From: a candidate division WOR-3 bacterium
Lineage (GTDB): Bacteria > Hydrothermota > Tepidihabitantia > SM23-42 > JAOAFX01
Assembly (NCBI GenBank): GCA_965649105.1
Contig: CBFGJP010000001.1
Location: 14,464-78,463, forward strand
DNA: 64,000 nt
Direction: 5' to 3'
Shown here: positions 2,570 through 64,000 of the stretch, in pieces
Layout: each line of letters opens with the position of its first letter
How positions within the stretch are numbered: the stretch's first letter is position 1
Notes under the pieces: generated by a model
Database searches by the model: none
What the model was told of the DNA's origin: nothing
Seen by the model: the letters and a program-made list of their open reading frames with translations, nothing else
Made by a program: the position numbers and the translations under genes

Positions 2570-4159
2570 TTATCTTATTAAAATAAATTTGCCATTTATG
2601 CCTTCTTTTCTGATGAAATATACACCTTCAGATAACGAAGAAAGGTCTATTTTTATACTGTGATGACCGGAACTCAAATTTTCGGTCCTGATCTTTTTTA
2701 CAACCCGACCCTCGGCATTATAAATAGTAACTGTGCTGCTTTCATTTATGTCGATTTCAAGTAAGATATCTTTAGAAGCGACATTCGGTCTTATCATTGG
2801 TAAGACGACAGTATTCACCCTGCGGTTTTCTTTCGCACCAACATTTTCTACTACCCCAACGTATGTATCCTGGTTGCCATTCCTTGTATCAGTCCAGATC
2901 GGTATTGTATTTCCCTTTGAAGCCGCTGCGAGGCCATTATATTCACCAATCAAACCAGCCCTTTGGTCAACAAGGGGCTTATTTGGGTTGTAAGGTTCAA
3001 ATTCAGCAACCGAACCTGCCCTTAAATCAAAAGAGACATTGGTTACACGCACATTAGGAAGCCAGGTATTTCCTCCATCAGTTGATTGAGCAAGATATAC
3101 ATCACAGAGGATATTGTTGGGGTCATTTCTTGAATCGTAAAAAATCACAGAAATGCATCCTGTGCGGTCTACAGTGAGCCAGGGATGAAACTGGTCTATA
3201 TGATTTCCAATAGGGTCATCATTTATTCTGACCTTTTGACTCCAGGTATTTCCTCCGTCTGTGGAACGGGTAAAAAACATATCTGGATAGCCATCAATTC
3301 CATTGTCCATATAGGCAATATAGATATAACCCCGGTATGGCCCATTAGTTATATCAACATCCATAGCAGGATAGGAGAATGTCATTATCGTTCCCTTAAC
3401 ATAACGATTCATTGAGGCAATACTTTGGACTGTTTTATCGGTTCCAAATGAAAGACCACCATTTGTGGAACGGTCAAACTTTATTGAATTGTAAGTGCAC
3501 CAGGCAACATAAACCTCACCGTTTGGACCAACTGCGGGCACCGGCCATTGGAGATTTCCCTGTGTGTCACTAATTTGAATCGGGGTTGACCAGTTATAAC
3601 CCTGGTTGGTTGAACGGGTGAAATATATTGCCGGTGTGGAAAAATTAAGGAACCTTGCCCAGGCAACATAGAGATAACCACGATATGGGCTATTCGTTCT
3701 ATCACAGGCAATCAGTTCTTTATCTTCAAATACATTTTGAACGCCGTTCACCACGGTCCTCGGCAAACTCCAGGTGAGCCCTTTGTCGGTTGACTGGAAT
3801 AGAAAAAATCCGTTCGGTTGGGAAGTTGAATTAAAAGATAGAACTATCGCATAAAAATTGCCATCAGCATCAACCGTCATTCCCGGATCAGAATCCCAGT
3901 TATAGGTCGGTTCAACAAAAAGGGTCTCCGCAATCCAGGTTCTTCCTCCATCCAGTGATGCTGCATGACCAACCTGACGGTATCCGACACGAAAATCCCG
4001 CCAGTTCGCAACCAGATTTAAGGTATCATTAGGATTTATCACAATTTGTTGTTCATTCTGAATCTGGGTTGTGTTGTCGGTATTGACTTTGATGTTAAGA
4101 AAACCCTCGCTGAATAAAAGATGACAGAGCATCGCAATAAACGCAACAATTTTAATCAT
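2570..4159 (-). CDS. BNR/Asp-box repeat protein (sialidase/sortilin-like beta-propeller) with T9SS C-terminal sorting domain
   Basis: Signal peptide. Multiple S-x-D-x-G-x-T-W Asp-box repeats (SLDGGRTW, STDKGLTW, STNGGLSF, STDGGNTW x2). C-terminal T9SS CTD (…GVYFIRKEGINGKFILIR). Confidence 0.65.
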   Translation of the reverse strand: MIKIVAFIAMLCHLLFSEGFLNIKVNTDNTTQIQNEQQIVINPNDTLNLVANWRDFRVGYRQVGHAASLDGGRTWIAETLFVEPTYNWDSDPGMTVDADGNFYAIVLSFNSTSQPNGFFLFQSTDKGLTWSLPRTVVNGVQNVFEDKELIACDRTNSPYRGYLYVAWARFLNFSTPAIYFTRSTNQGYNWSTPIQISDTQGNLQWPVPAVGPNGEVYVAWCTYNSIKFDRSTNGGLSFGTDKTVQSIASMNRYVKGTIMTFSYPAMDVDITNGPYRGYIYIAYMDNGIDGYPDMFFTRSTDGGNTWSQKVRINDDPIGNHIDQFHPWLTVDRTGCISVIFYDSRNDPNNILCDVYLAQSTDGGNTWLPNVRVTNVSFDLRAGSVAEFEPYNPNKPLVDQRAGLIGEYNGLAAASKGNTIPIWTDTRNGNQDTYVGVVENVGAKENRRVNTVVLPMIRPNVASKDILLEIDINESSTVTIYNAEGRVVKKIRTENLSSGHHSIKIDLSSLSEGVYFIRKEGINGKFILIR

Positions 4160-4299
4160 AAAAACCTCCTAAATAATTGCTCCCGTAAAATTATACTGAA
4201 TAAATCAAAGAAATCAAGGTCGCGATTATTCCGAGAAGTCTTTCATACTGATGACATACCACGAATTGTTTTTCTTTCCGAACCTATGATTCATAATAC

Positions 4300-6964: not shown

Positions 6965-7981
6965 ATGGTTTATTTTTTTATCATTTCTTTCTCTTTAGAT
7001 TGGGGTTACATACCCGTGAAGGTGAATCTTGGATATTCAAATCAGTATATGACAATCGCCCATTTTTCAGCGAGCACGCTGGGGCTGCACAGTGAATTAA
7101 TTACACTCGGTGTATCATTATATGGCCAGGAGAATTTCTTCTATGAACATCGTAATGGTAGAATTAAAACTGATTTTCCAACCTGGGAAGATTCAATTGA
7201 TTTAATAATACGCTATAGAAATCTGTTTTCCCAATATATCTTCAATGCCGAATTACATCCCTTAAAGAGAATACCATTTTTTATAAGAATTGAAGGTTCA
7301 TTATGGGCAAGGGCGAGAATTGACCATTGGATTGTATCAGAGATTATTTCTGAAAATCCAATCAAATTTTATGATTATGCCTTATATGAATTGTATCCTA
7401 AAGGATATAAGAGATTGTCCATAGGTATTGAACCGCTAACATTATTTAATTCTGAGATTTTTGTTGAAGCAGGTATTATGAATATAAGTTATCCAAAAAT
7501 AGATGTGAAAGAAATAAATACCGCATTCAACCAATTATATCTTTCAGTCGGGACAAACTTTCTGCATAAGAGGACAAATAATAGATTGCCCTGGGAGATC
7601 GCGCTTGCCACCGGGATTGATGCGACAGCAACTGGAACCTTCACGCTAACTTATGTCTGGAATGAAAGGTATATGAAAGATTGGCAATTGTCTATACTCG
7701 GTGGTCTATCTGTAGTTTCGGGTGCCGGGTGTGGTTATTTCCAGCATTATGTAAAAAGATTATGGTTAAAACCAGAGGATAAATTCTGGAGTAAAGCATT
7801 AAAAAAGGGTGGGGTGGGACTGGCTTCAGGATTGATCTATGAATTGGCGATGATTTCTGGTTATATATATGCAAGCCGTGATTGGCCCCATAATGGCGAT
7901 TATATGGTGCGTGATTTTGCTTATCTCTCTATTATAAAGATTGTTTTTTTGGGACATTTATTAACAAGTTTGGTATTCTGA
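6965..7981 (+). CDS. hypothetical protein (possible outer-membrane beta-barrel; ends in aromatic residue)
   Basis: 338 aa. Alternating hydrophobic pattern, C-terminal ...TSLVF. No recognisable catalytic motifs. Confidence 0.4.
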   Translation: MVYFFIISFSLDWGYIPVKVNLGYSNQYMTIAHFSASTLGLHSELITLGVSLYGQENFFYEHRNGRIKTDFPTWEDSIDLIIRYRNLFSQYIFNAELHPLKRIPFFIRIEGSLWARARIDHWIVSEIISENPIKFYDYALYELYPKGYKRLSIGIEPLTLFNSEIFVEAGIMNISYPKIDVKEINTAFNQLYLSVGTNFLHKRTNNRLPWEIALATGIDATATGTFTLTYVWNERYMKDWQLSILGGLSVVSGAGCGYFQHYVKRLWLKPEDKFWSKALKKGGVGLASGLIYELAMISGYIYASRDWPHNGDYMVRDFAYLSIIKIVFLGHLLTSLVF

Positions 7982-12174: not shown

Positions 12175-14310
12175 TTACACTTTGTCAATCCGTAATGAGA
12201 GTTGAAATAATCCGAGACCCACGATAAAATTCAGGATTATAAATAAAACAGAAGTATATAATATCCCAAGTATTGGGATGAAAATCAAGGCAGTAATCAA
12301 TGCCCCGAAACTTGCGCCCAAAAGATCAATCCCATAAAGGATACCCGACTTTTTTTCAAAAAATATGTCTATTACCAATGGGAAATGTAAACCATTTAAA
12401 AATCCCCCGGCTAATAAAAGAATGGCAATGATATAATTTATAAACTCCACCTTCGTAAAAGTACAAATAAAAATTATTAAAAAATAAATGCCTATGGTTA
12501 TTTGAATAGTCGATAAAAAGTTCAGCTTTTTCTGAAGGGTATCTATTTTTCTAAATATTCTCATCTTAATAAAAAACAAAGTTCCCATTGCAAGTCCCAG
12601 CATGAATAAACCTATAATAATACCTATCCAGTTATAAACATATCCATAAAATACTTGAAAGAGAATCAAAAGTACTATCTCAGATGAAATGCCTGCGACA
12701 CCGGTGGTAAATATTGAGAGATAAATAAGCGTTTTGCGATACCAGCAGAAAAGAATGGGAATCAATATTAATAAAAATAAACCCGGATGCATATTGAAGA
12801 GTTTTAAAAATAATTTTTTAACAAATCCTGAAGAAATACTACCCCATAGTAGCACATTGAAATAATAACATACAGGCTTTAAATCGTTGTTAATATAAGA
12901 CTTCGTTCTTTCGATACACTGCTTTATATATCCAATTTTTTCCTCAGTAAGATTGTAATCAAAAAAATAGTTATTTACGTAAAGAAGATTAAGATTTCTG
13001 TCCCTGATATTTTTCTTCAAAATTTCTCTAATTCCAACTTCAATTTCGTAGTCCAGTCCAATATATGTGGCTTTTGATAACGGTAATACATAAACTTTTT
13101 TGAAAACCCTTTCCAATGTATTCTTGATTGTGCCTAAAAATTGGCTATAAATCGGGCTGAAAATATCCGGTGTATAATTGACTCTAATACAGAATATCCC
13201 ACCCTGATTAAGCCTGCCTTTAGATTCCTGGAAGAATTCTAATGTATAATATCTATTAAGATTTGCATTTACCGGATCAGGCAGATTAATAATAATACAA
13301 TCAAATTTTTCTTTGGTATTTTTGATATAGTATCGACCATCGCCGATAATTACATTTAATCTATTATCAAAAATTTGAGAACCAATAAATTTTTTTGAGA
13401 TTTCAATAATCTTGGGATCGAGTTCCAGATAATTCAATTTCTGAATCGATGGATGTTTGAAAATCTCTTGTATGCCACCACCCAAACCACCGCCAATAAG
13501 CAGAACACTTTCAGGATTCTTGTGGATTAACAGCGGATAATGAACCGCCTCTTCCGAGGCATAAAAATCAGGGTACGCAAAGTCAAAAACGCCGTTTGAA
13601 TAAAAGTTGATCTGATCATCCGATTTTGTTAATGTGATATTTCCGTATTTTGATTCAAAGACACCAATAATATTTTGCCCCGGCATCTGCACTTTTTTTA
13701 ACTTAAACTCTATCGAGTTTATAGCCAGAAATAAAAATAAGGGAAGCACGGACAATAACAGGTAAATCTTTTTTCTAATACATAAATAACTGGCGAATAT
13801 TAATAACGAAATGAGCAAAATAAAGATACCCGATGGGGGGATGAAAGATAATAAAACGAAGGATAATATAATACCACCAAAAACAGCACCAAAACTTTCA
13901 AAAAAATACACCCTTTGTGGTCTTATAATTTCAGTAGCAGCAGGAAATAGGGCACCAAAGATGATACAGAGTGGACAAAGCGTAATAAACGCAATAATTA
14001 TTATCTTGTATAAATCAATAACCTCACCAAAGTTTATAGAGAAGATCGCAGGGGCATTCCTTATGAATATAAAAGAGCATACCAAAAACAGTGCGGTTAA
14101 AAAAATAAGATTTGCATAATTTCGCGCCGGGTTATCTCTTAAATTCAATTTTGAATATATGAAACTTCCCAACCCGGTCAACAAAAGCCAGAGAAATAGC
14201 ACAATACCTGAAATCAATTCATTGCCCGAAAAAAATGCGAGCATTTCGCGGATGATCATTGTTTGACTCATAACTGCCGCCATACCCGATATAAAAATTG
14301 CAATGTGCAC
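12175..14310 (-). CDS. fused polytopic-membrane / spermidine-synthase-like (polyamine aminopropyltransferase family) protein
   Basis: 711 aa. Multiple TM helices at both ends. Central PABS-like domain (LLIGGGLGGGIQEI...LELDPKII...GDGRYYI...DCIIINLPDP). Confidence 0.6.
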   Translation of the reverse strand: MHIAIFISGMAAVMSQTMIIREMLAFFSGNELISGIVLFLWLLLTGLGSFIYSKLNLRDNPARNYANLIFLTALFLVCSFIFIRNAPAIFSINFGEVIDLYKIIIIAFITLCPLCIIFGALFPAATEIIRPQRVYFFESFGAVFGGIILSFVLLSFIPPSGIFILLISLLIFASYLCIRKKIYLLLSVLPLFLFLAINSIEFKLKKVQMPGQNIIGVFESKYGNITLTKSDDQINFYSNGVFDFAYPDFYASEEAVHYPLLIHKNPESVLLIGGGLGGGIQEIFKHPSIQKLNYLELDPKIIEISKKFIGSQIFDNRLNVIIGDGRYYIKNTKEKFDCIIINLPDPVNANLNRYYTLEFFQESKGRLNQGGIFCIRVNYTPDIFSPIYSQFLGTIKNTLERVFKKVYVLPLSKATYIGLDYEIEVGIREILKKNIRDRNLNLLYVNNYFFDYNLTEEKIGYIKQCIERTKSYINNDLKPVCYYFNVLLWGSISSGFVKKLFLKLFNMHPGLFLLILIPILFCWYRKTLIYLSIFTTGVAGISSEIVLLILFQVFYGYVYNWIGIIIGLFMLGLAMGTLFFIKMRIFRKIDTLQKKLNFLSTIQITIGIYFLIIFICTFTKVEFINYIIAILLLAGGFLNGLHFPLVIDIFFEKKSGILYGIDLLGASFGALITALIFIPILGILYTSVLFIILNFIVGLGLFQLSLRIDKV

Positions 14311-22886: not shown

Positions 22887-25322
22887 ATGGGTATATATTT
22901 GGTTCTATTTTTCTTGTCTGGTTTTTCTGCTTTGATTTATGAGATTACCTGGACAAGATTACTCTTGCTTGCATTTGGTTCAACAACCTTAGCAAATGCC
23001 CTGGTCGTATCAGCATTTATGCTGGGACTTGGTCTTGGCGGATTATATTATGGTTCCTATGTCGATCGGGTCAACAATTCTAAGAAATTATTTTCATATC
23101 TGCAGTTAGGAATTGGCTTATCTTCCTTTTTATTACTGCTTCTCATTAATCAGTTACCAAATTTTTATAAAGGCATATCAAAAAATATACATTTAAACCC
23201 ATCAATTTCATCAACCATTATATTCATTTTAACCTTCGCAGTCTTATTTATTCCTACATTTTTAATGGGCGGGACATTTCCAGTAATTACAAAATGTTAT
23301 GTTCAGGATGAGAATAAAATCAAAAATGGAATAGGATTATTATACGGATTCAATACTTTCGGAGGTACGATTGGTGCATTATTAACCGGATTCTTTTTTA
23401 TCAGAACATTGGGGCTTTCTTCGACCCAGTTGATCGCAATTTTAATAAATTTAATAATCGGCATTTTGGTGTATCTTTTCATTGCAAAAATGTCAACGGA
23501 AAATAGAATTTCAAAAACTGTTCCCCAGGAATCAAAAAAAGATAATTTAAACAAAATAAAAAAATATATGCCACTCATTGCCGGGCTAACAGGGTTTGCT
23601 GGGCTTGCCTGTGAAATTTTATGGATTCGTGCATTATCAATATTCCTTATCAATTCCACCTACACCTTTACTATGATTATTATTGTCTTTCTGTCGGGAA
23701 TTTTTATCGGTAGTATTGTATTTACCAGATTATCAAAAAAATCAAATATCCATAATGTTTTTGCATTAGTGCAAATTCTGACAGGATTATATATCATAAC
23801 TGGCAGTTTATTTTTAAATAAACTACCAGCATTACTATTTTTGTTCTCTAGTATCTTTGAAATACCTACCCTTAGAATGTTCCTACCCGCATTACTTCTT
23901 TCTTGGGTTATAGTCTTTGTACCCGCAATATTTATGGGGATAAGTTTTCCGCTAATTTGTTCTCTATACGAACAGAAAATACCGAACCTTGGTAACTATC
24001 TGGGTAATATTTATTTTTTCAATACAATTGGCAGTGCACTTGGTTCGCTAATTGCTGGTGTGCTCTTAATCCAATATATCGGAGTCATAAGGGGATTGGT
24101 AACTGTTGCTTTTATAAATTTACTGATTGGTTTCTTTTTTACGCTTTCTTTGAAGAAAAAATTTGTATATATCATTATTTTTGTTTGGGCAATCGCCAGC
24201 TTTTTTTATTCAATGCAAAATAAATTAATACTTCCGCCTTCCCTTTACCAGTCACCGAGCAGACAACACCGTGTTTTATTTTATCAAGAAACATTGGATG
24301 GGACTATAATTGTGAGTGAAGACCGTTCCACGGGCATAAGGTCCTGCTATGTAAATAACAGTGCGGTAATCGGCACAACCTATGATGCATTGAAGGTTGT
24401 AAAAATGCTCGGGCATCTTCCGTTCATATTCAATCCTGATGCAAAAGAGATATTGGTCATTGGTTTTGGAATTGGTATAACAACTTCAGCAATTGCACGG
24501 TATAATGTGAACCAAATAGATTGTGTTGAAATTTGTCCGGGCTTGCGTACAGCAGCAAAATATTTTGCAAATTTTAATAACTATATTTTTAATAATCCCG
24601 TAGTAAATTTTATTAACGCTGATGGCAGGAATTTTTTGCTATTAACAAAAAAAAGATACGATATCATTTCCTGCGACCCAACACATCCTATATTGGGAAG
24701 CGGAAGTCTTTATACTAAAGAGTTTTTCATATTGTGCAGGGAGCATCTATCGGATAATGGAGCAGTCTGTCAATATCTGCCCCTTCATAAACTGAGCCCG
24801 GATCAATTTAAATCTTTGATAAAAACCTTCGCTGATGTCTTCCCGCATACTTCAATCTGGCTTGGTTATTCGCATGGTATCCTTGTGGGCACAAATCATT
24901 CCCAAAAGATAATCTTTGAATCATTAAAAAATTTAAACGATGACCTGCTCAAAGATCCATATCTTCTTGCCGTCTCATATCTTCTTGATACAGAGGCAAT
25001 TAGACATTTCACCTCGGGTGCAAAGATAAATACCGATAACCAACCCAGGTTAGAATTTTTTACTCCCTTAAGTTTGAGGAATGAAAACTGGGAGCATAAT
25101 ATAAAATCAGTAATGGAACACAGAATTAGTATTGATAAAATCGTTATTGGCATTGAGGATTTAGAAAAATTGCAACGATATTTGCAGGGACAGAAGTATT
25201 TTATTGAAGGGCTCATATATCAAAACCGAAGAGACCGACAGTCAATGATCGAGGCGTTTAAAAAATCATTGGCAGTAAATCAAGAAAATAACGAAATAAG
25301 GCTATTACTTCAATCGCAATAA
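22887..25322 (+). CDS. fused polytopic-membrane / spermidine-synthase-like protein with C-terminal TPR region (paralog of 12175..14310)
   Basis: 811 aa. About 12 TM helices in the N-terminal half. PABS-like domain (ILVIGFGIGITTSAIA...IDCVEICP...FINADGRNF...DIISCDPTHP). TPR-like C-terminus. Confidence 0.6.
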   Translation: MGIYLVLFFLSGFSALIYEITWTRLLLLAFGSTTLANALVVSAFMLGLGLGGLYYGSYVDRVNNSKKLFSYLQLGIGLSSFLLLLLINQLPNFYKGISKNIHLNPSISSTIIFILTFAVLFIPTFLMGGTFPVITKCYVQDENKIKNGIGLLYGFNTFGGTIGALLTGFFFIRTLGLSSTQLIAILINLIIGILVYLFIAKMSTENRISKTVPQESKKDNLNKIKKYMPLIAGLTGFAGLACEILWIRALSIFLINSTYTFTMIIIVFLSGIFIGSIVFTRLSKKSNIHNVFALVQILTGLYIITGSLFLNKLPALLFLFSSIFEIPTLRMFLPALLLSWVIVFVPAIFMGISFPLICSLYEQKIPNLGNYLGNIYFFNTIGSALGSLIAGVLLIQYIGVIRGLVTVAFINLLIGFFFTLSLKKKFVYIIIFVWAIASFFYSMQNKLILPPSLYQSPSRQHRVLFYQETLDGTIIVSEDRSTGIRSCYVNNSAVIGTTYDALKVVKMLGHLPFIFNPDAKEILVIGFGIGITTSAIARYNVNQIDCVEICPGLRTAAKYFANFNNYIFNNPVVNFINADGRNFLLLTKKRYDIISCDPTHPILGSGSLYTKEFFILCREHLSDNGAVCQYLPLHKLSPDQFKSLIKTFADVFPHTSIWLGYSHGILVGTNHSQKIIFESLKNLNDDLLKDPYLLAVSYLLDTEAIRHFTSGAKINTDNQPRLEFFTPLSLRNENWEHNIKSVMEHRISIDKIVIGIEDLEKLQRYLQGQKYFIEGLIYQNRRDRQSMIEAFKKSLAVNQENNEIRLLLQSQ

Positions 25323-56652: not shown

Positions 56653-56726
56653 GCGCCCGTAGCTCAACTGGATAGAGCGGCGGACTACGAATCCGCAGGC
56701 TACGTGTTCAAGTCACGTCGGGCGCG
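56653..56726 (+). tRNA. tRNA-Arg (anticodon ACG)
   Basis: Acceptor GCGCCCG/CGGGCGC, D arm GCTC-AACTGGATA-GAGC, anticodon stem GCGGA/TCCGC with loop CTACGAA, T arm ACGTG-TTCAAGT-CACGT, discriminator G. Confidence 0.85.
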
Positions 56727-56759: not shown

Positions 56760-57227
56760 ATGGTAAATAATGATGAACTTTTTATGGTTGAGGCATTGAA
56801 AGAGGCACAAAAGGCATTTAACGAAGATGAAGTGCCGATTGGTACAGTGGCGGTTTATAAAAATCAAATCATCGGGCGTGGTCATAATCGGACAGAAGCA
56901 CTTCAGGATCCCACTGCCCATGCCGAGATTCTGGCAATCACCGCTGCAGCAATTAGTTTGAAGTCTTGGCGTTTGAACGATGTGGTTATTTACACAACCA
57001 TTGAACCCTGTATAATGTGCGCTGGTGCGTTAATTCTGGCGAGGGTTAAAAAAATAATTTTCGGTGCACGAGATGAAAAATTTGGTGGTTGTGGTTCGGT
57101 TTTCAATATTGTCCAGGAGAAAAAATTGAATCATAGGATTGAGGTAGTTGAAGGTGTTTTAAGAAATGAAGCATTGTCTTTAATGAAAGATTTCTTTAAG
57201 CAAAAACGTAATAAAAAGAAAAAATAG
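56760..57227 (+). CDS. tadA: tRNA-specific adenosine deaminase
   Basis: CDA zinc motifs HAEILAI and PCIMCAGAL. 155 aa. Confidence 0.8.
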   Translation: MVNNDELFMVEALKEAQKAFNEDEVPIGTVAVYKNQIIGRGHNRTEALQDPTAHAEILAITAAAISLKSWRLNDVVIYTTIEPCIMCAGALILARVKKIIFGARDEKFGGCGSVFNIVQEKKLNHRIEVVEGVLRNEALSLMKDFFKQKRNKKKK

Positions 57228-57512: not shown

Positions 57513-57601
57513 GGAGAGATGGCCGAGTGGACTAAGGCGCGCGACTCGAAATCGCGTATCCGCTTAAAAGCGGGTCGGGGGTTCAAATCCCCCTCTCTCC
57601 G
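57513..57601 (+). tRNA. tRNA-Ser (anticodon CGA), class II with long variable arm
   Basis: Acceptor GGAGAGA/TCTCTCC, 3-bp D stem with 11-nt loop, anticodon stem CGCGA/TCGCG with loop CTCGAAA, 20-nt variable arm, T arm GGGGG-TTCAAAT-CCCCC, discriminator G. Confidence 0.8.
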
Positions 57602-60311: not shown

Positions 60312-60848
60312 TTAATTATGCAATACAAAAACTTGATTACCTGGAGATTTGATCGACCAGTTATCTTTGCCCGATCCGATCAAACCATATTCGGTCCATG
60401 GATATATACCTGTGGGAGACCAGCGCCCATAACCGATACAACCAGAATTAATAAGATTTACATAATTTGGTCCTGGTATGTTTGTATTACAGTTATCATT
60501 CTCATTTGCATAATTAAAAATAATGAATTCAGTAATAACCATTTGTTTACCGGAATACGGATTGGTCGGTAATGTACCTAACCGGGTTTGTAGATCTTCG
60601 TCGCCACCCGGAAAATAGTAACCAAATCCTTGCCCTGCTGTGTTAAGATCTGATGGGTAGATCCCATGCTTATCTATTGAAAAAGCATAAACACAAACCT
60701 GTGTAGCATGCATATTTTCTTTTACTGCCGCTTGATGCGCCCTTTCCCTCATTATTATGTAATTTGGAATAGCAATTGCTGCAAGAATACCGATTATTGT
60801 TACAACAACCATTAATTCTATCAGCGTAAAACCCTTTCTCACACACAT
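60312..60848 (-). CDS. type IV pilin / pseudopilin (prepilin-type N-terminal cleavage/methylation domain)
   Basis: Leader MCVRKG followed by FTLIELMVVVTIIGILAAIAIPN (class III signal peptide). 178 aa. Confidence 0.75.
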   Translation of the reverse strand: MCVRKGFTLIELMVVVTIIGILAAIAIPNYIIMRERAHQAAVKENMHATQVCVYAFSIDKHGIYPSDLNTAGQGFGYYFPGGDEDLQTRLGTLPTNPYSGKQMVITEFIIFNYANENDNCNTNIPGPNYVNLINSGCIGYGRWSPTGIYPWTEYGLIGSGKDNWSIKSPGNQVFVLHN

Positions 60849-60856
60849 ATTCCCGT

Positions 60857-61906
60857 CTATAGTTTTTTCTTTTTAATGTAAGATGGTAATATTATCTTAC
60901 CTTTATTTCGATCGTAGATATACGGATTTCCAAATGGATTTTTTGGTATCTCCCGTATAAATTTTTCTTTTACAAGGTCATCAAGTTTATCCGGGTATTT
61001 CCCCTTTGCTGCTTTATATGCCATAATGCGCTGATTGAGATAATTGGCATTCATTTCTAATTCATCCAACAACAAAGTTGTGCTTGACACTATACTATCC
61101 ATTATCAAAATATATTTACCTCCAAATGGTTCTGCCGGAATCTTAGTGAGTAGCCTTGCATTAACAAGTTCCGTTAAACCTTTCGGCAAAACGTCAAATT
61201 TACGCCGGTATTGATGTACAAATCTCTGTAATGAATCAATGTCTTCTTCAATTTGGATATAATATAGGGATTTCAGTGCCGTCTCCTTTCTTTTCTCTGT
61301 CTGGGCATTTTTCAGGACTATCTGCCAAAGATCTTTTGCAAATTTATATTTTTTTGCTTTTCTGAAGGCATGAGCAGCAAAACGGATGGATCTTCCAGAA
61401 AAACCTTCCCTCAAAGCAGAAAGTTTAAAATAACGCCCGGCCTTGTTGAAATCCTTCAATAAAAAATAGTTAATAAATCCAGCGTCAAAAAGTGGTTCCC
61501 ATCTATCAGGACAGTTGGTGATCGCGCGTCTAAGTAATTTAATAGCTTCTGCAGGACTACCAGCATCTTCAGCAATCAAAAGTGCACCAAAACGATATCC
61601 GTTAATAAATAGAGGATCCAATCTTGTAAGTATATCAAAAATATGTGTTAACCATGGATAATTATAATCGGTAAGTGCATGCTGGCCATAATATTGAATT
61701 GCCCTAAGCCAAACAATATTTGAAACAAATATATCAAAATCGCACACTACAATTTTTAAAAATCTTCCTGATGGGAAATACATCATTTCATTAAGAATTT
61801 CCTTCTTAGGTGGATAAATTTGGTCGTACTTAATCTGGAAAAAATGAACTATCATTGGAAAAATGACAATGATCAAAATAGGCACAAAAATCTTCTTAAT
61901 AATCAT
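60857..61906 (-). CDS. membrane-anchored TPR-like protein with two GspG-like C-terminal motifs (pilus/ABC-system accessory protein)
   Basis: N-terminal TM helix without prepilin motif. Central helical-repeat region. Two copies of a pseudopilin-like segment (…LVNARLLTKIPAEPFGGKYI and …LVKEKFIREIPKNPFGNPYIYD, cf. GspG …LP.DPWGNPYQY). 4-nt overlap with upstream permease gene. Confidence 0.45.
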   Translation of the reverse strand: MIIKKIFVPILIIVIFPMIVHFFQIKYDQIYPPKKEILNEMMYFPSGRFLKIVVCDFDIFVSNIVWLRAIQYYGQHALTDYNYPWLTHIFDILTRLDPLFINGYRFGALLIAEDAGSPAEAIKLLRRAITNCPDRWEPLFDAGFINYFLLKDFNKAGRYFKLSALREGFSGRSIRFAAHAFRKAKKYKFAKDLWQIVLKNAQTEKRKETALKSLYYIQIEEDIDSLQRFVHQYRRKFDVLPKGLTELVNARLLTKIPAEPFGGKYILIMDSIVSSTTLLLDELEMNANYLNQRIMAYKAAKGKYPDKLDDLVKEKFIREIPKNPFGNPYIYDRNKGKIILPSYIKKKKL

Positions 61907-62664
61907 AAATCCTTTCTCTCAAAAATAACAATTGCTAAAGAAAGCAGAATAATAGTATAAGCAAGTCCATAGGCGACCGCAAATATTGTAGCATTCAAAT
62001 CCAAAGAAAGGTTATTAGCGATAGCGGCGCGAACATTAAAATAAGAAAGGTTAGGGAGAATGTAGTAAAGCGCCGTAGAGATGTTCTTCAAAATCGGTGA
62101 CTTCGTCAATTCACCCAGAACCAATATATCCGCGGTGAAATGTCCACAAAAATAGATCGCAAATGTAAAAACACCACTACTCATAGGGCTGGAAAATGTA
62201 GAAAAGAGAATCGCAACAGCTGAAACAATTATTATTTCCATAAACTGTAAAAATATTGCAACGATAATATTTGTACTGAATGCCACTTTAAAAACAATTA
62301 AATAAAGAATAAATATGAAACCAAGTATACCTATTATCAAAGATAAGGCAAAAATTATACCCAGATATTTTCCAACAATAAATTGCCACCTTTTGACAGA
62401 TTTAGGGATTATCATATAGATTGTCTTTCGCTGAACTTCATCAAATACCAATCTGGTACTTACAAAAACCGTAATTAGAATACCAATAATTGAAATCATT
62501 GAAAGTCCAAAATCTTTGATTAATCGAACCTCCTCTCCAAATGAAAGGGGAGCAATTAATTTAACACTCATTATTGAAATTAGCCCTAACACCAATATAA
62601 TCAGAAGAACTTTGTCTCGAATTACCTCACGCATTGTATTAATAGAAACAGCAATTGTTTTCAT
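61903..62664 (-). CDS. ABC-2 family transporter permease
   Basis: 253 aa, 6 TM helices, ABC-2 topology. Overlaps the ATPase gene by 4 nt. Confidence 0.65.
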   Translation of the reverse strand: MKTIAVSINTMREVIRDKVLLIILVLGLISIMSVKLIAPLSFGEEVRLIKDFGLSMISIIGILITVFVSTRLVFDEVQRKTIYMIIPKSVKRWQFIVGKYLGIIFALSLIIGILGFIFILYLIVFKVAFSTNIIVAIFLQFMEIIIVSAVAILFSTFSSPMSSGVFTFAIYFCGHFTADILVLGELTKSPILKNISTALYYILPNLSYFNVRAAIANNLSLDLNATIFAVAYGLAYTIILLSLAIVIFERKDL

Positions 62665-63584
62665 TTTTTATGTCCAGAAATTGATACAAAATAGTCTTCT
62701 AAAGTTTTGGTTTCCGGGGCCAAACTGATTATGGTGCCATTATTGTCCAAAATTGTTTTCATCGCTTCATTGCAGTCATTAATATTATTGAAGACAAGTT
62801 TTATAGAATCAGAAAGTTCTACTATTTCGATGAGATTATGTATTCTGGAAAGAACATCTTGATTAACATTTTTGGCTTTGATAATATACAAACCTGCATC
62901 CGGTTTCAGAAGATCATCAATGCTACCTTCTCTGACAAGGTGGCCAGAAATTATTATTCCTACCCGGTCACAAACTTCTTCGACATCAGACAGTATATGA
63001 GTTGAAAAAAATATGGTTTTCCCCTGTTTTTTGAGATTAGACATTATTGCTTTCACATCCTTTCTGCCGATTGGATCAAGCCCTTCCATTGGTTCATCAA
63101 GAATAAGCAACGAAGGATCATTAATCAATGCCTGCGCAATACCAAGTCTCTGAAGCATGCCTTTAGAATAAGTTCTAATTTTCATGTTACTAGCACTTTC
63201 TAAACCAACCAGAGACAATAGATTAGGTATACGTTTATGTAATACCTTAATGGAAATTTCAAAAATATGTCCGCAGAATTCTAAAAATTCATATCCAGTG
63301 ATATGAGAATAAAAACTTGGATTTTCGGGTAAATAACCTACTTGTTTCATTGCAAGTATGTTTGGTAACTTAATACCATTTATATAAACATCGCCCGAAT
63401 CTGGAAAAAGCAAACTGGTCAGGATTTTTATTGTTGTCGTTTTTCCTGCTCCATTCGGTCCAAGAAATCCATATATCTCACCAGACTTTACTGATAAACT
63501 AACATTGTTCAAGGCATTCTTCTTTTTGAGGAGAAAACCCGTTTTATAGTTTTTTGTCACTTTTAATATTTCTATTGCATTCAT
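62661..63584 (-). CDS. ABC transporter ATP-binding protein (ABC-2 subfamily)
   Basis: Walker A GPNGAGKTT, signature YSKGMLQR, Walker B LLILDEP. 307 aa with C-terminal extension. Confidence 0.75.
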   Translation of the reverse strand: MNAIEILKVTKNYKTGFLLKKKNALNNVSLSVKSGEIYGFLGPNGAGKTTTIKILTSLLFPDSGDVYINGIKLPNILAMKQVGYLPENPSFYSHITGYEFLEFCGHIFEISIKVLHKRIPNLLSLVGLESASNMKIRTYSKGMLQRLGIAQALINDPSLLILDEPMEGLDPIGRKDVKAIMSNLKKQGKTIFFSTHILSDVEEVCDRVGIIISGHLVREGSIDDLLKPDAGLYIIKAKNVNQDVLSRIHNLIEIVELSDSIKLVFNNINDCNEAMKTILDNNGTIISLAPETKTLEDYFVSISGHKK

Positions 63585-63595
63585 ATTGATAGAAT

Positions 63596-63633
63596 AAAGG
63601 GACCTTTATATACGCGTATATAAAGGTCCCTTT
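63596..63633. terminator. perfect 38-bp palindrome (19-bp arms) between pilin paralog and ABC operon; terminator and/or operator
   Basis: AAAGGGACCTTTATATACG|CGTATATAAAGGTCCCTTT, flanked by T/A tracts on both sides. Confidence 0.6.
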
Positions 63634-63656
63634 TTGGCGTTTAGAGTAAACAGCAG

Positions 63657-64000
63657 CTAATTGTGCAGAACGAGAATGCTGCTACCACCTCTTAAAGTGA
63701 GAAAGTCTTTCCTTGAACCAACGACACCCCACTCAGTCCAAGGCCACGCACCGGAGGTTGAATAGGTTCCGTACCTTATAAGACCTGCTCCACCAAGGTT
63801 TGCGTCATTTGCTCCGCCGATTGATTGGTCACTATTGTCGCCGGCATTGGCGTACACATGTATAATAAAATCAGCTACTTGCATTGGTGCACCCGTATAT
63901 GGATTATTGGGTAGTTGTCCAAGTACTGTTTGCAAATCTTCGTCACCACCAGGGAAATAATAACCAAAGCCCTCTCCAGAAGTATTCACATCTGTTGGAT
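63657..64000 (-). CDS. type IV pilin paralog, C-terminal part (N-terminus beyond window end)
   Basis: Aligns with residues about 70-178 of the 60312..60848 pilin (GEGFGYYFPGGDEDLQT…LVLHN). No prepilin leader within window, so the gene must start past 64000. Confidence 0.65.
   Translation of the reverse strand, partial: PTDVNTSGEGFGYYFPGGDEDLQTVLGQLPNNPYTGAPMQVADFIIHVYANAGDNSDQSIGGANDANLGGAGLIRYGTYSTSGAWPWTEWGVVGSRKDFLTLRGGSSILVLHN

Follow-up and report, generated by a model that had tools for sequence, protein, structure and literature searches.

A type IV pilin locus with a likely PilGHI-type ABC module in an uncultured bacterium related to WOR-3/Stahlbacteria

The locus described here occupies positions 60312-64000 of a 64-kb stretch of contig CBFGJP010000001.1 (hereafter the window), where five open reading frames (ORFs) lie on the minus strand (Table 1). 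They encode the end of a type IV pilin (PilA1), an ATP-binding cassette (ABC) ATPase, an ABC-2 permease, an accessory protein with a tetratricopeptide repeat (TPR) superhelix, and a second, complete prepilin (PilA2). This is likely a type IVa pilin locus with a pilus-linked ABC module of the PilGHI type, in an uncultured bacterium of the Fibrobacterota-Chlorobiota-Bacteroidota (FCB) group related to WOR-3/Stahlbacteria. PilGHI has been known since 1998 to be needed for the pili of Myxococcus; to our knowledge it has no accepted mechanism, and it is often treated as a myxobacterial oddity.

Genes and features of the pilin locus

Table 1. Features of the pilin locus (aa, amino acids).
Feature	Position	Strand	Remarks
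pilA1, partial pilin	63657..>64000	-	3' 113 codons and stop; frame runs off the window end
Hairpin	63596..63633	-	17-bp stem, 4-nt loop; in the pilA1-ATPase intergenic region
PilH-like ABC ATPase, 307 aa	62661..63584	-	ABC_tran 1.4e-29
PilI-like ABC-2 permease, 253 aa	61903..62664	-	ABC2_membrane_2 8.3e-10
PilG-like accessory protein, 349 aa	60857..61906	-	N-terminal transmembrane helix, TPR superhelix, two GspG-like head modules
TPR-like superhelix of the PilG-like protein, aa 47-237	61196..61768	-	AlphaFold2 (AF2) model, Foldseek
GspG-like head module 1, aa 222-275	61082..61243	-	Helix and beta-hairpin in the model
GspG-like head module 2, aa 286-339	60890..61051	-	Repeats module 1 in tandem; T2SSG 20.2 bits (aa 291-333)
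pilA2, complete type IV prepilin, 178 aa	60312..60848	-	N_methyl, TIGR02532, prepilin leader

The original prediction, read from the sequence alone, placed two paralogous pilins around an ABC module, and this was borne out. All five ORFs are present, and PilA1 and PilA2 are true paralogs with 54% amino acid identity over 113 residues (E=4e-44). The nucleotide identity of about 75% that had been ascribed to their 3' halves holds locally (74% over the best local 133 nt), but falls to 61% over the whole shared 340 nt. PilA2 scored 35.8 bits with N_methyl (cut-off 21.2) and 37.8 bits with TIGR02532 (cut-off 16.3); its leader (MCVRKG/FTLIELMVVV) has G(-1), F(+1) and E(+5) together with the hydrophobic alpha-1N segment. 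The window ends before the N-terminus of PilA1 is reached. Two related loci (L001 and L002) have complete upstream pilins, 87% and 75% identical to PilA1, which begin MKKGFTLIELMVVV and carry the class III leader motif. Orthologues of PilA2 occupy the matching position in L001, L002 and a third locus, L006. Between genomes the upstream pilin is 75-87% identical and the downstream pilin 53-63%; within each genome the two paralogs differ by 40-50%. By these values the pilin duplication is old. All pilins of the clade (window, L001, L002 and L006) also share the C-terminus [ILVF]-[LF]-[VL]-[LF]-H-N-COOH, and the rest of their heads diverges to 25-39% identity.

The permease gene overlaps the ATPase gene on one side and the accessory gene on the other by 4 nt each (ATGA), in agreement with the tightly overlapping operon that had been proposed. 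The proposed count of three genes has to be extended to four, because pilA2 begins 8 nt past the stop of the PilG-like gene. Pilins thus lie on both sides of the ABC module. The gene priA follows on the same strand, 111 nt beyond pilA2, and the immediate neighbours of the module are pilins and PriA.

The hairpin between pilA1 and the ATPase gene, which the original prediction had not mentioned, has a perfect stem (-26.4 kcal/mol, z=-5.7; 0 of 200 shuffles were as stable) and ends 11 nt ahead of the ATPase ATG. L001 and L002 have a hairpin at the equivalent position with different stem sequences, and with a T-run in L002. The hairpin is probably an intrinsic terminator or attenuator; a simple terminator scan did not call the one in the window. 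A scan of the window locus for the sigma-54 promoter consensus found no credible site.

Homology of the ABC module to PilGHI

The assignment of an ATPase, an ABC-2 permease and a transmembrane/TPR protein was supported by domain calls, which for the accessory protein were sub-threshold only (TPR_14, E=0.0011; T2SSG, cut-off 21 bits). For comparison, Myxococcaceae pil loci were fetched with an M. xanthus PilA query that agrees with PDB 8TJ2 in all 208 residues of the mature protein. The reference locus (L012, a record titled M. xanthus strain AM003) has the order pilB-pilT-pilC-pilS-pilR-pilA-pilG-pilH-pilI-pilD-pilS2-pilR2-pilM-pilN-pilO. In pairwise BLASTP against its proteins, the window ATPase is 39% identical to PilH over 298 aa (E=2e-72), the permease is 27% identical to PilI over 251 aa, end to end (E=2e-38), and the accessory protein is 22% identical to PilG over 274 residues (E=3e-9). 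With tblastn, the accessory protein had no match in the M. xanthus locus at E<=1e-3. When a profile of 24 FCB-type accessory proteins was aligned with one of 17 PilG proteins of Myxococcaceae, hhalign gave a probability of 100% (E=8e-43, 247 columns). All three proteins are thus homologues of their PilGHI counterparts, which goes beyond the likeness first noticed in the arrangement. No NCBIfam equivalog was reached by the window proteins or by M. xanthus PilG, PilH and PilI.

The window therefore has a PilH-like ATPase, a PilI-like permease of about 255 aa and a PilG homologue; as in M. xanthus, the module stands directly after a major pilin gene and its genes are translationally coupled. The order differs: the M. 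xanthus genes run G-H-I and then pilD, whereas the window has H-I-G followed by a major-pilin-like paralog (pilA2) and priA. The window also lacks adjacent pilB/T/C or pilM-Q genes, and it comes from an FCB-group candidate lineage, with identities of only 22-39%.

The overall architecture of the accessory protein was examined in an AF2 model (pLDDT, predicted local distance difference test, 92.7). An N-terminal helix (residues 2-30) precedes the all-helical TPR-like superhelix, and two modules of a helix and a beta-hairpin follow, with structured cores at 245-275 and 309-339 joined by a long helix (276-301). The superhelix is the conserved core of the family and includes the motif W-L-R-A-I-Q-Y-Y-G. 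Foldseek with the whole model found generic TPR arrays only (consensus TPR, and the TPR arrays of OGT/SPY). A profile of the C-terminus had eight matches in the PDB at E<=10, and the best seven were GspG-type pseudopilins (best E=0.0016). In a separate model of the C-terminus (pLDDT 94.6), EpsG, PulG and GspG were among the top Foldseek matches, with a root-mean-square deviation of 1.6-3.2 Å over about 68 columns and E>=1. The likeness to pilin heads is weak, and it is consistent across methods.

The C-terminal modules share with the GspG-type pseudopilins of the type II secretion system the motif '...P..L..LV..GYL..IP.DP.GG.Y...', and with the heads of GspG, EpsG and PulG the shape of a helix plus a beta-hairpin. 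They differ in having neither a class III signal peptide nor a hydrophobic alpha-1N helix; moreover, they are partial heads of only about 55 residues with weak scores, fused behind a TPR array. The accessory protein does not belong to the GspG pseudopilins, with a T2SSG score of 20.2 against 21 bits and no prepilin leader; in NCBIfam it matched the GspG model only, weakly, with no GldF or GldG match. Module 2 matches the single C-terminal module of M. xanthus PilG (E=4e-6) and that of the 298-aa PilG-like protein of L006 (L006_u298, E=5e-7), and module 1 also aligns with the single module of PilG. Members of the family have zero, one or two such modules. The layout of anchor, TPR and GspG-like module is the same in M. 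xanthus PilG, which has one module, whereas the module is duplicated in the window clade.

The original prediction went further and regarded the accessory protein, with its pseudopilin motif, as standing in place of PilG in a new and undescribed pilus ABC system. The gene order, the two GspG-like motifs and the empty tblastn search could be read in that way. The BLASTP and hhalign results refute it and identify the accessory protein as PilG-like, no substitute for PilG. The same GspG-like motif occurs in M. xanthus PilG itself, a bridging homologue (251 aa, E=4e-29) stands upstream of the ATPase gene, in the position of PilG, in a Myxococcota metagenome-assembled genome (MAG), and the H-I-G order predominates in public data. 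We regard a replacement of PilG as scarcely credible.

It was also considered whether an ordinary ABC-2 transporter, of the GldAFG, NosDFY or drug/lantibiotic-immunity type, might lie by chance between the pilins. The ATPase scored 226 bits with both the GldA and the DrrA models of NCBIfam, each time under the cut-off, and its nearest solved relatives are the nucleotide-binding domains of ABCA proteins and NosF (7e-45). The family profile of the permease had NosY (7O0Y) as its sole PDB match (E=2.5e-8, full length), and homologues of the permease are labelled 'multi-copper enzyme maturation permease' by Joint Genome Institute (JGI) pipelines. The organism also has a cargo protein of the type IX secretion system (T9SS) kind: a BNR-repeat protein at 2570-4159 (minus strand) carries a C-terminal Por_Secre_tail sorting domain (33.4 bits, cut-off 27), which supports an FCB/T9SS background and makes the earlier description of a T9SS organism plausible.

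These resemblances stop short of membership in any of the named systems. With the GldA equivalog (TIGR03522) the ATPase reached 226.1 bits against a cut-off of 402.6, and the permease had no NCBIfam match at E<=0.1, hence none to GldF or GldG. NosY is a distant relative, reached by the family profile and not by the single permease sequence in the PDB search, and the domain tables of six annotated related loci contain no NosD-, NosL- or NosZ-type domains. The three-gene set with a PilG-like protein is kept with pilins and pilD in most informative loci, and its proteins are homologous to the genetically defined PilGHI. The original prediction had named best matches to Gld or Nos transporters, without pilin linkage in relatives, as what would count against it; the low GldA score, the missing GldF/GldG matches, the distance to NosY and the strong pilin linkage in relatives all point the other way. 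The GldAFG, NosDFY and drug-exporter readings were accordingly rejected on their membership tests, and a chance insertion of an ordinary transporter is largely refuted and very improbable.

The profile matches and the failed membership tests place the module in the same broad ABC-2 class as NosFY, outside Nos and Gld. NosDFY combines an ABC-2 pair with a third partner that is exposed to the periplasm, and it probably transmits a conformational change outward instead of pumping a solute. NosY and NosF are related to the window permease family and ATPase as described above; however, the third partner of the window type is a TPR/pilin-head protein, with no NosD beta-helix protein, NosL or NosZ in the annotated relatives, and the genomic context is pilins instead of nos genes. 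GldA/GldF/GldG of Bacteroidota is likewise a three-part ABC-2 system in an FCB-group setting, with an accessory membrane protein; the window module differs in its GldA score, far under the equivalog cut-off, and in having pilins rather than gliding genes as neighbours.

The module in related and distant genomes

A word index gave 55 relatives of the accessory protein, all of them from MAGs or metagenomes; the labelled ones are Stahlbacteria, WOR-3, Latescibacteria or Eisenbacteria. The loci L001-L003 repeat the window arrangement exactly, in the order pilin, ATPase, permease, PilG-like gene and pilin, and L006 also has pilins on both sides of the module. The arrangement in L001-L003 is preceded by a protein with response-regulator, sigma-54-activator and HTH_8 domains (PilR type) and by two unknown proteins. 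A PilR-type sigma-54 activator upstream is a further likeness between the close relatives of the window and M. xanthus; the absence of a PilS-type kinase beside it is a difference.

The two conserved proteins ahead of the PilR-like regulator (L001 3971-5950, L002 3590-5625) have about 350 and 310 aa and no Pfam domain. The first is probably a lipoprotein, and the two may provide sensory input. In the clade of the window the PilR-like regulator has no adjoining PilS-type histidine kinase.

More distant loci place the module among further pilus genes. L005 has pilC-pilS-pilR, two pilins, a VKOR/Dsb protein, ATPase, permease, a 296-aa PilG-like protein (E=4e-26 to the accessory protein), PilD and minor pilins. 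L006 has a pilin, ATPase, permease, a 298-aa PilG-like protein (E=1e-72), a pilin, minor pilins and pilMN-pilO-pilQ. In the Myxococcota MAG the 251-aa PilG-like protein is followed by ATPase, permease, a 214-aa protein and PilD. The module lies inside full pilus clusters in L005, L099, L133, L146 and L150. The permease family comprised 331 homologues with 33-45% identity; members with 35-43% identity lie in pilus clusters, and the three distant members examined were all in type IVa pilus clusters (3/3). One permease with 62% identity to that of the window (P0059) carries the NCBI label 'Bacteroidales bacterium'; since the other labelled relatives are MAGs of the Stahlbacteria/WOR-3 type, this is probably a binning or naming artefact.

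Metagenomes were scanned by PilG-like alignment combined with the motif W[LF][RK][ATV][IV][QG]YY[GA], which gave 428 relatives and 80 loci that were kept. The order ATPase-permease-PilG-like (H-I-G) was found in 58 of the 80 loci, and most of the others were truncated. The arrangement had been thought undescribed; H-I-G beside pilins is instead the commonest form in metagenomes, and PilGHI homologues outside Myxococcus were already noted in surveyed bacteria, mostly Deltaproteobacteria (PMC6060248). A core pilus gene was present within 6 kb in 12 of the 17 loci with at least 2.5 kb of flank on both sides, and in 32 of the 42 loci with such a flank on one side. Typical contexts were pilBTC-pilSR-pilin-HIG-pilD and pilin-HIG-pilin-minor pilins-pilM-pilO-pilQ-pilT-pilD. 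Among the Myxococcota loci anchored on pilA, G-H-I followed pilA in 46 of 79. Gene order was treated as a trait of lineages and not as a defining feature of PilGHI.

A profile search with the PilG-like family against 1.84 billion representatives (counted at 50% identity) returned 7,797 matches at E<=1e-3, 4,060 at E<=1e-10 and 1,188 at E<=1e-30. The family is spread over Myxococcota, metagenomic lineages resembling Acidobacteriota, and FCB candidate phyla. It is without a curated Pfam or NCBIfam model, and for this reason thousands of genomes list PilG-like proteins under names such as 'hypothetical' or 'TPR protein'. The literature searched describes neither an occurrence in candidate phyla of the FCB group nor the domains that make up PilG. 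A pilA-linked ABC transporter presumably also exists in Geobacter (GSU1498-1500); a literature search found no paper on it, and it was not used as evidence.

Promoter sites were found in the close relatives. An exact match to the sigma-54 consensus (TGGCAY-N5-TTGCW) is located 300-390 nt ahead of pilA1, beside the PilR-like gene, in a region that falls outside the window. Sites are at 7325-7340 in L001, at 7398-7413 and 9547-9562 in L002, at 4264-4279 and 6413-6428 in L003/L087, and in many of L135-L148. The second exact site of L002/L003 is inside the permease gene and could serve pilG-pilA2 as an internal promoter.

The long 5' region of pilA1 in these relatives also contains a conserved leader of about 70 nt (L001 7536-7605, L002 7586-7655). 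Its first stem is GTGTGCC...GGCACAC in one and GTGTCTC...GAGACAC in the other, with pairing apparently kept through changes on both sides; the nested second stem (GGTTGC/GCAACC and GGTTAC/GTAACC) apparently keeps its pairing as well. Covariation is not established, because there are only two independent sequences. A search of Rfam with the leader gave no match.

Additional pilA loci were seen in the Myxococcota. L020 and L070 belong to one Cystobacter fuscus chromosome, where extra pilA paralogs lie outside the main pil cluster, and extra pilA loci are also found in many of the Archangium and Myxococcaceae loci among L025-L084. Many of these extra loci have their own pilG-pilH-pilI and no pilBTC or pilMNO within the fetched flank, which suggests that each of the pilin paralogs can move together with an ABC module of its own. 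The locus L050 (BNCN01000001.1, titled Comamonas sp. KCTC 72670) has a complete cluster of the Myxococcaceae type, pilBTC-SR-pilA-GHI-D-SR-MNO, and its PilA is 46% identical to that of M. xanthus; this assembly is probably mislabelled or not Comamonas.

Possible function of the module, and other features of the window

Genetic work on M. xanthus links PilGHI to pili and to exopolysaccharide. A passage of PMC3724824 that cites Wu et al. 1998 describes PilG, PilH and PilI as essential for the translocation of pilin across the inner membrane. In the same paper the single pilG, pilH and pilI deletions are treated as pilus-negative and have lost exopolysaccharide (PMC3724824). A deletion of pilGHI abolished social (S) motility and exopolysaccharide, and was complemented by pilGHI (PMC5544727). 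A Walker A allele of pilB suppresses the exopolysaccharide defect of the pilG, pilH and pilI deletions, as it does for a pilA deletion; the authors take this to reflect a loss of pili or pilin, not of an exopolysaccharide exporter (PMC3724824).

A different function might be that the module exports or flips a component of the envelope (for example a polysaccharide, lipid-linked glycan or pilin-modifying group) that pili need only indirectly. The genes would then stand near the pilins for co-regulation, and PilG would be a periplasmic adaptor for the cargo instead of the pilins. ATPases of the ABC-2/DrrA type are typical of exporters, the closest solved nucleotide-binding domains are those of lipid-handling ABCA proteins, and exopolysaccharide is lost in the M. 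xanthus mutants together with motility. In one sub-clade of loci the module adjoins a gene for a MurJ-like lipid II flippase in place of pilins. The suppression by the pilB allele argues against an exporter, as do the pilin-head-like modules of PilG and the linkage specifically to pilins and pilD over distant lineages. In addition, no glycosyltransferase or polysaccharide genes are conserved beside the module in the annotated related loci. Export of an envelope component is therefore considered unlikely, though less so than a chance insertion.

The sub-clade (L090, L091, L092, L117 and L126, with L113) has the H-I-G module without an adjacent pilus gene. In five of its six loci the module is followed by an unknown gene (IIDVNLNRLREGLK...) and then by the gene that we take, by its appearance, to be MurJ-like; L092 has neither. 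Upstream of the module is a gene that appears TrmD-like by its N-terminus (IITIFPEYF...), in L090 and L091 alone.

The existence of this sub-clade weighs against the pilus-linked PilGHI-type reading of the window, because the module may not be strictly dedicated to pilins, and several other points weigh in the same direction. The 39% similarity of the ATPase is unspecific, with the DrrA and GldA models scoring equally. The likeness to pilin heads is weak by each measure (Pfam sub-threshold, Foldseek E>=1, profile E=0.0016). Neither tblastn with PilB/T/C/S/R/D/M/N/O/Q references nor Pfam, applied to ten large ORFs, revealed pilB, pilC, pilD, pilM-Q or pilT in the 64-kb window, so that a working pilus machine has to be assumed for the organism. 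Finally, the periplasmic topology of PilG and the mechanotransduction described below are drawn by analogy with NosDFY.

If the locus is a PilGHI-type module linked to type IVa pili, a PilH dimer and a PilI dimer would form an ABC-2 engine in the inner membrane, with NosFY as the nearest solved relative. The N-terminal helix would hold PilG in the membrane, with the TPR array and the pilin-head-like modules facing the periplasm; this orientation is suggested because the N-terminus of M. xanthus PilG resembles a signal peptide and heads of the GspG type are periplasmic. ATP hydrolysis might be passed through PilI to PilG, which would act on the pilins by handling them, priming them or releasing them from the membrane. 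The step of PilG would thus be directed at pilin subunits rather than at the pumping of a small solute. The hairpin after pilA1 might keep pilin transcripts abundant, with the ABC genes and pilA2 expressed from read-through transcripts only. The mechanotransduction step, taken by itself and reached by analogy with the way NosFY drives periplasmic NosD, is rather doubtful.

A slightly more tentative proposal is that PilG-like proteins, with a TPR array and one or two pilin-head modules, are periplasmic mimics of pilins, which would couple a NosFY-like ABC-2 engine to the pool of pilins in the membrane. Many type IVa systems would in that case gain an unrecognised ATP-driven step besides those of PilB and PilT, and the two-module form, which would share its transcript with a second pilin, would be adjusted to the handling of two major-pilin paralogs. 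C-terminal peptides are often bound by TPR domains, and for this reason the conserved tail of the pilins could be the recognition target of PilG; this is pure speculation.

For the window itself the outcome is a modest one: an accessory system already known is extended to an uncultured lineage of the FCB group. The system as a whole is widespread, usually in the order ATPase-permease-PilG and in the heart of type IVa pilus clusters, and the architecture of PilG together with the synteny offers a concrete, testable view of the target of the ABC engine. To pilus specialists, the family's breadth, the H-I-G order, the domains of PilG and the missing curated model are of moderate interest; none of these points is specific to this window.

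Several other features were noted elsewhere in the window. Two proteins of 711 and 811 aa, at 12175-14310 (minus strand) and 22887-25322 (plus strand), each have a spermidine-synthase-like domain, and one of the two is fused to a membrane domain of the major facilitator superfamily (MFS) type. An Rfam scan of the window found three tRNAs only. These include tRNA-Ser(CGA) at 57513-57601 and tRNA-Arg(ACG) at 56653-56726 (plus strand). The latter lies 33 nt upstream of a 155-aa ORF (56760-57227, plus strand), which by its appearance may encode TadA, the tRNA adenosine deaminase whose substrate is tRNA-Arg(ACG).

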